This document shows, piece by piece, positions 41,284 to 44,897 of a stretch of 64,000 bases of DNA. This DNA is from Candidatus Fiminaster equi. Lineage in GTDB: Bacteria > Bacillota_I > Bacilli_A > RFN20 > CAG-826. The stretch spans positions 6,137 through 70,136 of the forward strand of contig JAGHUR010000011.1 in NCBI GenBank assembly GCA_018064745.1, read 5' to 3'. The notes under the pieces were generated by a model. That model ran no database searches. It was not told where the DNA came from and saw nothing but the letters and a program-made list of their open reading frames with translations. How positions within the stretch are numbered: position 1 is the stretch's first letter; every line of letters starts with the position of its first letter. The translations under genes and the position numbers were made by a program.

Positions 41284-41374
41284 AATATCCGGGAATTCAT
41301 AAGGATTTCTCGAGAAAACAGGGGGTTTTTGAGAAAATCAAGACCCCCTCAAAATAAGAAAGAAGGATTTAATT

Positions 41375-42707: not shown

Positions 42708-43400
42708 TTATTTCTTTGAAATAACTAATGCTGGTTTACCAAATGTTACTTTGACATTATCTGGTATAGATTCTGTTATAAATACGTTTGAACCGATTGT
42801 TACATTATCACCAACAGTAATGTCTCCCAGAATACTTGCTCCCGCGTATATAATTACATTTTCGCCAAGTGTAGGATGTCTTTTAGTTCCCTTTAAAGAC
42901 GCTCCATTTTTTAAAGATAACGCACCAAGCGTAACTCCTTGATAAATCTTTAAATTTTTCTTTGAAATAGTAGTTTCACCGATGACGATACCAGTTCCGT
43001 GGTCAATAAATAATGGAGATGCAAGATTTGCACCTGGATGAATATCAATTCCGGTTTGTGAGTGAGCGGATTCAGACATCATACGAGCTTGAAGTTTATA
43101 ATTCATTGAATAAAGAATGTGAGCAATTCTATAAGTCATAATTGCTTTGTAACCAGGGTAGGCTAAAACGATTTCTTCCTTGCTATCAACGGCTGGATCG
43201 CTCTCCATAAAGAATTCTAGATCGTGTGAAAGCATATTTTTCACAATTTTTAATGAATTTAAATACTCTTTTGCCTTTGATTTATTTTTGTCTATTACTT
43301 GAAGGAATAAATTCTCAATTACATCTAAGTTTTCTTTATTAAAAACAACATAACTTTTTGTTACTTCAAGTAGCCTTAATAATTTCTTTGAACTTACCAT
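42708..43400 (-). CDS. cysE: serine O-acetyltransferase
   Basis: 230 aa. SATase N-domain plus hexapeptide repeats (GIDIHPGANLASPLFIDHGTGIVIGETTI). Confidence 0.85.
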   Translation of the reverse strand: MVSSKKLLRLLEVTKSYVVFNKENLDVIENLFLQVIDKNKSKAKEYLNSLKIVKNMLSHDLEFFMESDPAVDSKEEIVLAYPGYKAIMTYRIAHILYSMNYKLQARMMSESAHSQTGIDIHPGANLASPLFIDHGTGIVIGETTISKKNLKIYQGVTLGALSLKNGASLKGTKRHPTLGENVIIYAGASILGDITVGDNVTIGSNVFITESIPDNVKVTFGKPALVISKK

Positions 43401-44269
43401 TTATATCTGTCTCCTTTATCAGGGAAAATTAGCACAATATTTTTACCTGAAATCTTATTTTCTTTAATATATTTTATGCATGCTTCTAGGGCTGCTCCAG
43501 AAGAGAGCCCAATATCAATTTGCTCGAGATTTCGTATGGATTTTGCGCGTATTTCCGCATTTTTTCCTTTTACATCAACAATCTCATCAACAACATTTTT
43601 ATCAAAAAGTGGTGGTAGAAAATTTGCACCTATTCCTTGTATTGAATGAGGACCAGAAATGCCCTTAGTTAGAAGCGGTGATTCTTCTGGTTCAACACCG
43701 ATAATTTTACAGTTAGATTTTTCTTTTAAATACTTACCAGTTCCAGTTATTGTTCCGCCGGTTCCGATTCCTGCAAACAAATAATCAATTTTTGGCATTT
43801 CTTCTATTATTTCTGGACCAGTAGTTTTGTAGTGACCTAAAACATTACTTTTATTGTTGAATTGGTCAAACAAAATTGAATTTTTAGTCTTTTTCACCAA
43901 TTCAATTGCGTAATCTTCACTTTCTTGCATTCCACCTTTAGTCAAAACAAGCTCAGCGCCATAATTAGAAATCATTTCTTTTCTTTCTTTGGACATGCTT
44001 TCCGGCATAACAATTACAAGTTTGTAGTCAAATTCATTTTTATAATAGCCAAGTGAAATTCCAGTATTTCCACTGGTTGCTTCAATAACGGTGGTATTTG
44101 AATTTAACCTGCCCTCTTTTTGGTAATCAATAAGCATTTGGTATACTGCTCTATCTTTGATAGAGCCTGAAGGATTTGAGTTTTCTAATTTTGCATAAAC
44201 AAAATTGTTGAGATTATATTTTTCCTCAATTCTTGTTAAACGAATCAGTTTTGTATTTCCTGGTTTCAT
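43394..44269 (-). CDS. cysK: cysteine synthase A (O-acetylserine sulfhydrylase)
   Basis: 291 aa. PLP-lysine motif NPSGSIKDRA. GTGGT. Overlaps cysE by 7 nt (operon cysK-cysE). -10 TATAAT only about 17-20 nt from the ATG, so near-leaderless. Confidence 0.9.
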   Translation of the reverse strand: MKPGNTKLIRLTRIEEKYNLNNFVYAKLENSNPSGSIKDRAVYQMLIDYQKEGRLNSNTTVIEATSGNTGISLGYYKNEFDYKLVIVMPESMSKERKEMISNYGAELVLTKGGMQESEDYAIELVKKTKNSILFDQFNNKSNVLGHYKTTGPEIIEEMPKIDYLFAGIGTGGTITGTGKYLKEKSNCKIIGVEPEESPLLTKGISGPHSIQGIGANFLPPLFDKNVVDEIVDVKGKNAEIRAKSIRNLEQIDIGLSSGAALEACIKYIKENKISGKNIVLIFPDKGDRYKW

Positions 44270-44351
44270 ATCTTAATTTAGCATTATTATACTGATTTCT
44301 TAATAAAAGAAAAAATGTAATGATAAGAATTTTTGTATTTGCTATAATGTT

Positions 44352-44436
44352 TTAGCCATCGCAATGGTCTACTACGAACCAGGTCAGGGCAGGAATGCAG
44401 CAGCCTTAAGAAGATCAGATTATGTGCGATGGTTTT
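44352..44436 (+). ncRNA. ffs: signal recognition particle RNA, small (4.5S-type) form
   Basis: Extended -10 promoter TTGCTATAAT at 44339-44348. Domain IV consensus read directly: CCAGGUCAGG-GCA-GGAA-UGC-AGCAGCC (GNRA tetraloop flanked by the conserved symmetric loop). Closing helix GCCAUCGCA (44355-63) pairs with UGCGAUGG (44425-32). Lies next to tadA, echoing the Bacillus tadA-scr arrangement. Confidence 0.75.
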
Positions 44437-44441
44437 AAAAT

Positions 44442-44897
44442 ATGAAATCCATTGATGAAAAATTCATGTTACTTGCAATTAAAGAAGCAGAGAAATCTGC
44501 GTCTTTAGACGAAGTTCCAGTGGGTGCAATTATTGTAAAGGATAACAAAGTTATCGCTCGTGGTCATAACCTTAGAGAAAAGAGTAATGATCCAACAAGT
44601 CATGCTGAAATAAATGCAATTAGAAAAGCTTGCAAAAAGCTTGGCAGTTGGAGACTAGAAGATTGCACAATGTATGTCACTATTGAACCTTGTTCAATGT
44701 GTGCCGGAACTTTACTTTGGACAAGAATTAAAAGAATTGTCTATGGTGCATGCGATTTAAAAGGCGGTGCCTTGGGAAGTTCCTTTTCATTATTTGAAGT
44801 TAAGAATATAAATCATCATCCAGAGATAGTTGGAGGCATTCTTCAAGAAGAATGTGGAAAGATGATGAGCGACTTTTTCAAAGAAAAGCGTAAATAA
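44442..44897 (+). CDS. tadA: tRNA-specific adenosine(34) deaminase
   Basis: 151 aa. CDA fold with HAEINAI and TIEPCSMCAG zinc motifs. Confidence 0.9.
   Translation: MKSIDEKFMLLAIKEAEKSASLDEVPVGAIIVKDNKVIARGHNLREKSNDPTSHAEINAIRKACKKLGSWRLEDCTMYVTIEPCSMCAGTLLWTRIKRIVYGACDLKGGALGSSFSLFEVKNINHHPEIVGGILQEECGKMMSDFFKEKRK

Follow-up and report, generated by a model that had tools for sequence, protein, structure and literature searches.

The thrU-tyrU-glyT-thrT-tufB operon of E. coli is an example of a mixed operon of stable-RNA and protein genes, and in mitochondria the 5' end of an mRNA may arise by excision of a neighbouring stable RNA, which is called 'tRNA punctuation'. In B. subtilis, the SRP RNA gene scr lies in the order yaaJ(tadA)-scr-dnaX-yaaK-recR, and the genes that follow yaaJ are served by promoters of their own (PMC10454642). 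The scRNA, which belongs to the 271-nt Alu-containing type, is transcribed from a promoter of its own, has its own terminator, and is produced from a 354-nt precursor via RNase III, RNase J1, and RNase PH; RNase J1 releases it from the downstream RNA, and RNase PH trims it (PMC1935012). The 4.5S RNA of E. coli (ffs) starts as a precursor, which RNase P cuts and RNase T/PH trims (PMC1935012).

We compared with these systems a locus in a 64-kb stretch of DNA (hereafter the window). As in B. subtilis, SRP RNA and tadA genes are immediate same-strand neighbours in an oriC-proximal position, but they stand in the opposite order, with ffs 5' of tadA in the window and scr 3' of yaaJ in B. subtilis. 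No published description of an ffs-tadA unit in this order was found in the literature searched, which is not proof of absence. The features of the locus are as follows (window positions; SD, Shine-Dalgarno).

43394..44269, - strand: cysK, the divergent neighbour (best NCBIfam matches to the cysKM/cysK models, 311.9 and 300.5 bits, E 4.5e-93)
44286..44291, - strand: TATAAT, -10 hexamer for cysK, ending 16 nt before the cysK ATG (predicted SD-less leader of ~10 nt)
44320..44325, + strand: ATGATA, weak -35-like hexamer with a 17-nt spacer (promoter scan; not conserved)
44340..44348, + strand: TGCTATAAT, extended -10 box of the predicted ffs promoter (promoter scan; predicted start 44354-44356)
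44355..44436, + strand: ffs, small (4.5S-type) SRP RNA (RF00169, fold, and covariation; predicted mature RNA ~80-85 nt)
44355..44363, + strand: GCCAUCGCA, 5' arm of the closing helix, pairing with 44425-44433
44382..44405, + strand: GGUCAGGGCAGGAAUGCAGCAGCC, domain IV core GGUCAGG-GCA-GGAA-UGC-AGCAGCC (Ffh-binding loops and GNRA tetraloop)
44425..44433, + strand: UGCGAUGGU, 3' arm of the closing helix, with the conserved UGUGC of the distal site just before it
44433..44436, + strand: UUUU, U-run, candidate weak termination or 3'-end signal (GGUUU conserved directly after the helix)
44437..44441, + strand: AAAAU, remainder of the 9-nt A/U-rich spacer, without an SD
44442..44897, + strand: tadA, tRNA adenosine(34) deaminase, 151 aa (NCBIfam NF008113, 165.8 bits against a cut-off of 150)

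Identity and fold of the SRP RNA gene

The initial annotation had proposed a small-type SRP RNA gene in front of tadA, and all sequence features that it described are present at the positions it gave. We scanned the window with all 4227 Rfam models at the gathering threshold. The results showed that the sole match was RF00169 (Bacteria_small_SRP) at 44348-44444 on the + strand, with 66.8 bits against a gathering score of 40 and an E value of 1.3e-12, so the covariance model check for a small SRP RNA was clearly positive. The match is full-length, covering model positions 1-97 of 97. In the Rfam scans, the large-SRP model RF01854 had no match in the window, though it matched the Clostridia loci. 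The remark that the small type would help to place the organism fits these data, since the large Alu-containing RNA (RF01854) was found in Clostridia loci and the small type in the clade with ffs in front of tadA and in lactobacilli.

The domain IV core at 44382-44405, with its GGAA tetraloop at 44392-44395, agrees with the upper-case consensus of RF00169, and the 9-bp closing helix is formed by 44355-44363 and 44425-44433, both as had been proposed. The predicted fold is one long hairpin (minimum free energy -29.7 kcal/mol, z = -3.3) whose stability no shuffled sequence out of 200 matched. In an alignment of 18 ffs homologues, compensatory double changes were found in 12 of the 27 consensus pairs, while domain IV and the basal helix were nearly invariant. 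The domain IV motif varied only at the three covarying pairs of the tetraloop stem (CG or UA in nine sequences each, and AU, GC, or CG), and the ninth pair of the closing helix is A-U, G-U, or G-C among the homologues (one-sided changes). RF00169 scores at the related loci ranged from 54 to 70 bits. The window element is an ordinary small SRP RNA gene, a regular member of the 4.5S-type family. Stable accumulation of the RNA, binding of Ffh, and activation of the Ffh-FtsY GTPases are further properties of that family.

Compared with E. coli 4.5S RNA, the window RNA is likewise a single extended hairpin without an Alu domain, with a GGAA tetraloop, the distal UGUGC, and both loop motifs, the symmetric and the asymmetric one (GGUCAGG ... 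AGCAGCC). The E. coli RNA is 114 nt long, whereas that of the window is predicted to be about 80-85 nt; its transcript is predicted to span ~80-87 nt, with a start near 44354-44356 and a 3' end near 44434-44441. Two further differences are that the window gene has no separate terminator hairpin and that a protein gene follows within 9 nt.

Promoter, junction, and start codon

The promoter scan reported TGCTATAAT at 44340-44348 as the best promoter-like site of the region (10 of 12 matches plus the TG), a predicted sigma-70 promoter, which agrees with the earlier proposal that ffs has an extended -10 promoter of its own. This -10 box lies 6 nt ahead of the closing helix. In all 20 related loci, 6 nt (7 nt in L021) separate the -10 hexamer from the G of GCCATCGC, and the TG extension is present in 18 of them. 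The flanks upstream of the -10 hexamer are unrelated between loci; its distance from the helix is nonetheless fixed. From this constant spacing, transcription is predicted to start on the first helix base or beside it, so that no 5' processing would be needed, and the 5' end of the RNA is probably unprocessed. The predicted start would thus coincide with the mature 5' end, in contrast to E. coli 4.5S RNA with its RNase P-cut precursor.

At the junction, the U-run ends at 44436 and AAAAU follows, which is the 5-nt gap before the tadA ATG that had been described; counted from the last paired base of the ffs helix, the ATG at 44442 lies 8 nt beyond. The absence of an SD in front of tadA also held: the best upstream duplex with the anti-SD of the 16S 3' end has only -3.3 kcal/mol, compared to -8 to -16 kcal/mol for the SD-bearing genes of the window. 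Among the relatives, GGUUU after the helix is invariant (18 of 18 aligned homologues). Counted from the last G of the helix, the ATG is 8-14 nt away in 16 of the 20 junctions, nine of which have exactly 9 nt, and in 16 of the 20 the spacer is A/U-rich and itself lacks an SD element. Twelve of these 16 short-spacer junctions have an anti-SD energy of -3.3 to -3.8 kcal/mol; L004, L012, L015, and L021 reach -8.7 kcal/mol through GGUGGU in the 3' arm of the closing helix. We rejected this arm as an SD, since the other short-spacer loci, including the window, read GAUGGU there (-3.3 to -3.8 kcal/mol), and in the four loci with GGUGGU the arm is locked in the closing helix.

The exceptional junctions are of three kinds. 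In L016, L017, and L045, a run of six to seven U is followed by a clear SD (GGCGGUGA, GGUGGUGA, AAGGUGG; GGnGGUGA or AAGGUGG) and a longer spacer; the U-run length tracks the SD, with U3-4 in the SD-less loci and U6-7 in these three. L082 has a 26-nt SD-less spacer that contains TATAAT ~14 nt before the tadA ATG. In L003 (JAKSVH010000002), a 1,380-bp element of the IS200/IS605 family (2616-3995) lies between ffs and tadA at a junction equivalent to window 44437/44438. It encodes only TnpB (382 aa, ORF 2729-3877; NF040570, 281.7 bits), is oriented as both genes are, and splits GGUUUUA of the SRP RNA exactly from AAAU-ATG of tadA; its right end puts GUGGGGGUAG ~10 nt before the tadA ATG. The TnpB insertion in L003 and the spacer TATAAT of L082 indicate that direct abutment of ffs and tadA is not obligatory. 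We also observed that the identity between the window and L003 is 96.6% to the left of the insertion and 82.7% to the right of it.

The terminator scan called no canonical intrinsic terminator on the + strand at the SRP helix. Such a terminator has a G+C-rich stem with a short loop followed by at least 5-6 U, whereas the stem here is the base of an 80-nt hairpin and only UUUU follows. The helix and UUUU are at best a weak, non-canonical terminator. In the fused ffs-tadA RNA, the predicted accessibility of the start region is middling, with a mean unpaired probability of 0.4-0.65.

The tadA translation contains the zinc-binding motifs H-A-E and P-C-x-x-C (SHAEINAI and EPCSMCAG), and the NF008113 profile alignment begins at residue 4. 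An in-frame TAA at 44436-44438 lies upstream of the ATG and excludes a tadA start upstream of 44442; judged from the reading frame, the start is the ATG at 44442. Compared with L002 (JAZLKX010000040), codons 3-8 of tadA show six synonymous changes and no non-synonymous one, and over the full length of the gene 46 codon differences are synonymous and 8 are non-synonymous; by this measure, purifying selection is acting on tadA. Translational coupling by mini-ORFs was rejected, as was an alternative hairpin at the junction. The mini-ORFs from ATG 44364 to TAA 44436-44438 (in the tadA frame) and from ATG 44422 to TGA 44443-44445 (overlapping the tadA ATG) are not conserved, have no SD, and start inside the helix. 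An alternative hairpin of CGAUGG in the SRP 3' arm with CCAUUG in tadA codons 3-4 is not conserved either, as L002 reads UCAAUAG.

Gene order and genomic context

A TadA-seeded scan of 185,579 species genomes gave 80 loci, 71 of which (L002-L072) were taken into the Rfam scan, while L073-L081 were left out; about 8 kb was covered for each relative and 64 kb for this genome. SRP RNAs were located by the Rfam scans instead of a regular expression for domain IV, which missed known SRP RNAs (L027, L030, and L034). The results showed that 19 of the 71 loci (L002-L018, L021, and L045) have ffs immediately in front of tadA on the same strand. The same arrangement is present in L001, a 4-kb assembly with an identical TadA, and in L082, the single match of an ffs-seeded scan of metagenome contigs. 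Apart from a few evident mislabels, the records with ffs first are labelled uncultured Bacilli, Erysipelotrichales, or Erysipelotrichaceae. The genomes are uncultured gut MAGs with horse faeces and sheep rumen as named sources, and the isolate names of several records point to rumen or gut samples. The promoter, the helix, the absence of an SD, and the abutment are conserved in about 20 related genomes.

Elsewhere in Firmicutes the order is reversed, with tadA followed, often after a tRNA-Ser gene, by SRP RNA. Among the tadA-first loci with both genes on the same strand, eleven have a large Alu-containing SRP RNA and seven, including those of lactobacilli, have the small type. From these gene orders, the linkage of tadA and SRP RNA is widely shared, and the ffs-first order appears to be clade-specific.

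Another arrangement with a stable-RNA gene in front of tadA is that of Clostridia and Tissierellales loci, in which tRNA-Arg abuts tadA by 8-25 nt; in L028, L029, L036, L047, L054, and L066 the 3' end of the tRNA is 8-18 nt from the tadA start region. Both there and in the window, a stable-RNA gene of the strong-promoter kind stands directly 5' of a protein gene that lacks room for a promoter. Several of the tRNA-Arg junctions (e.g., L054, L066, L028, and L077) have an SD (GGAG, AAGGUGA), whereas the window junction is SD-less, and the tRNA is released by RNase P/Z, whereas the upstream RNA of the window is SRP RNA.

Several side observations were made in the relatives. Across Clostridia, Tissierellales, Elusimicrobia, Acidobacteria, and others (L019-L081, around 3800-4900 of each locus), tadA is found amid stable-RNA genes. 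The tRNA-Arg gene directly upstream on the same strand is usually of the CCU type, and is of the ACG type, the TadA substrate, in L019, L037, L056, L057, and L067; directly downstream there is tRNA-Ser (CGA or GGA) and then SRP RNA. In L062, tmRNA follows tadA, and in L060 (Clostridium sp. Marseille-P2415) two large SRP RNA copies with identical scores lie downstream of tadA, 3.3 kb apart (4554-4815 and 7882-8143). T-box leaders that score in Rfam were found in L012 (2379-2571), L015 (2380-2574), L016 (670-868), and L017 (2331-2528), ~1.3-1.6 kb upstream of ffs, which is the position expected for a serS leader. The Rfam scan gave no T-box match in the window, in which the gyrA-serS gap is only 91 nt (41284-41374).

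The window is the oriC region: dnaA and gyrB were confirmed by NCBIfam, serS follows, and dnaN, recF, and gyrA are also present. For the neighbours, NCBIfam gave cysK, cysE, serS, and a P-type ATPase as best matches; cysK and cysE scored less than the curated cut-offs, which for the cysKM/cysK models are 344 and 351. The initial annotation had described cysK as divergent and back-to-back with ffs. This is so in the window, but the gene is strain-specific and lies outside the conserved unit. DNA upstream of ffs is mostly the terminator of serS or of another gene, and a divergent cysK occurs only in the window and L003; it is absent from this position in L001, L002, and most relatives, serS being found there in L001 and L002. 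The identity between the window and L001 (99.86%) starts exactly at 44339, with the -35-like ATGATA outside the homologous part.

We noted further that the whole cysE-cysK pair between serS and ffs (42708-44338) is strain-specific. In L001 (compared over 1-260) and L002, serS and a terminator stand directly upstream of the ffs -10 box, and one breakpoint of the cysE-cysK segment is the 5' edge of this box.

A clear SD was found in only about half of the 46 long ORFs of the window; in a published survey, the share of genes with an SD was 74% in Bacilli and Erysipelotrichia and 41% in Mollicutes (PMC10783764). With so few clear SDs around it, an SD-less tadA is less odd here than it would be in typical Bacilli. 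A -10-like hexamer lies 5-22 nt before the start in 11 of the 46 ORFs, cysK among them, compared to 8.5% at internal ATGs. We observed TATAAT-like or TGnTATAAT sequences 7-17 nt before the SD-less starts at 2783(-), 7056(+), 18288(-), 18331(+), 44269(-), 51045(+), and 56378(+), and these starts are predicted to be leaderless or to have leaders of 0-10 nt. Judged from such hexamers, short SD-less leaders look common in the window.

Proposed routes to tadA expression

The initial annotation had offered two readings of the junction, either read-through from ffs or an unusual tadA start. The start is an SD-less ATG at 44442, and read-through is the favoured route to it, although this part is deduced from the arrangement. 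The promoter scan of the + strand found no promoter-like site at 44349-44441, and the spacer is too short and has no conserved -10 for a separate tadA promoter, which favours co-transcription by read-through. We infer co-transcription, the transcription start, the RNA 3' end, and the mode of separation of the two RNAs from the sequence.

We therefore propose the following model, which as a whole we consider likely. The extended -10 promoter would start transcription at or beside the first base of the closing helix, and the SRP RNA would require no 5' trimming. With neither a promoter nor an SD of its own, tadA would be expressed from the ffs promoter: polymerase passing the basal helix and U3-4, which may act as a weak terminator-like element, would run on into tadA. 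Translation would begin at the AUG, 8 nt past the last paired base, on the A/U-rich SD-less spacer, by the same SD-independent kind of initiation that seems to serve the many very short leaders of the organism. Partial read-through from one growth-linked promoter would be expected to give much SRP RNA and little TadA. Several points speak against the model. With a stable helix only 8 nt ahead of the AUG, binding of the 30S subunit to an unprocessed transcript might be impeded. The hairpin at which termination would occur is long, has internal loops, is followed by only 3-4 U, and was not called by the terminator scan. The L003 and L082 junctions also count against it, and with ~8 kb covered per relative, a second copy of ffs or tadA may lie elsewhere in these genomes.

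The main alternative, plausible but somewhat less than an even chance in our estimate, is that an endonuclease of the RNase J or RNase Y type cuts the co-transcript just after the SRP helix. The cut would release the SRP RNA and leave a tadA mRNA with a leader of 0-8 nt, translated like a leaderless mRNA. The leftover spacer (5-13 nt, A/U-rich, and SD-less) resembles the predicted short leaders of the organism, the TATAAT of L082 would likewise give an SD-less leader of ~5 nt, and in B. subtilis the scRNA 3' end is released by RNase J1 before trimming by RNase PH (PMC1935012). However, the 5'-monophosphate end produced in this way would expose the tadA mRNA to the 5'-exonuclease of RNase J, and the invariant GGUUU fits termination equally well.

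A promoter for tadA hidden in the 3' half of ffs, such as GATTAT at 44418-44423, would yield an independent short-leader mRNA. The hexamer has A2 and T6 and would leave a leader of ~12 nt, and L082 demonstrates that a promoter can evolve beside the junction; but GATTAT was not reported by the promoter scan, has neither a TG extension nor a -35, and is replaced in relatives by GGTCAT, GGTTAT, AACTAT, ATTCAT, and others, because pairing in the SRP helix sets the sequence at this position. With a negative scan and a candidate that is not conserved, we rejected an internal ffs promoter as improbable.

A link through TadA itself was suggested by CUACGAA (44372-44378), which equals the anticodon loop of tRNA-Arg(ACG), so that TadA might bind the SRP RNA or the leader of its own mRNA, or edit one of them, and autoregulate. 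The same heptamer forms the anticodon loop of five of the six tRNA-Arg(ACG) genes in the fetched loci, UACG in a loop is the recognition motif of TadA (PMC5630033), and tadA and ffs are neighbours across many lineages. The heptamer, however, lies in a strand of an internal loop instead of a hairpin loop of 7 nt, and the sequences on either side of it are unable to pair as an anticodon-like stem. In addition, 8 of 18 clade members have U, G, or C in place of the target A, and the string YUAYGAAYC also occurs in SRP RNAs located downstream of tadA (L064 and L027). On these grounds we rejected a selected TadA-substrate mimic, which seems very improbable, and judged CUACGAA to be a consequence of the Firmicute SRP consensus YUAYGAAYC. 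Least credible of all is that the functional ffs lies elsewhere and that the element is a cis-acting leader resembling SRP RNA or a surplus copy in decay. The analysis covered only 64 kb of this genome and ~8 kb per relative, but the match is full-length and high-scoring with all conserved domain IV residues, the compensatory changes indicate selection on the whole hairpin, the predicted promoter is strong and conserved, and there is exactly one copy per locus.

Beyond the read-through model, a stronger claim for the clade can be made only tentatively and is rather unlikely to hold in full: ffs may be the obligatory front end of the tadA unit and its promoter the sole one for tadA, and 3'-end formation at GGUUU, through cleavage or leaky termination, may create or gate a near-leaderless, SD-less tadA mRNA. 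The resemblance to leaderless mRNAs and to mitochondrial punctuation lies in an SD-less AUG that stands a few nucleotides past a structured RNA. If true, a stable RNA would serve as 'punctuation' in bacteria much as tRNAs do in mitochondria, and the level of a tRNA-editing enzyme would be tied to SRP RNA synthesis.

For annotation, an ffs gene missed by protein-based gene callers is now placed, and the start codon of tadA is fixed. The ffs-first arrangement is lineage-specific but unsurprising, the RNA belongs to a known family, and knowledge of SRP RNA itself is unchanged. The locus provides a naturally replicated, compact case, with about 20 species plus informative junction variants (an IS insertion exactly at the junction, a long U-run with an SD, and a promoter of its own), in which the gene of a conserved translation-related enzyme appears to depend on a stable-RNA promoter and, itself SD-less, has a very stable helix only a few nucleotides in front of it. 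If confirmed, it would offer a system for the coupling of stable-RNA 3'-end formation with mRNA 5'-end formation and for SD-independent initiation in low-G+C Bacilli related to Erysipelotrichales and Mollicutes.
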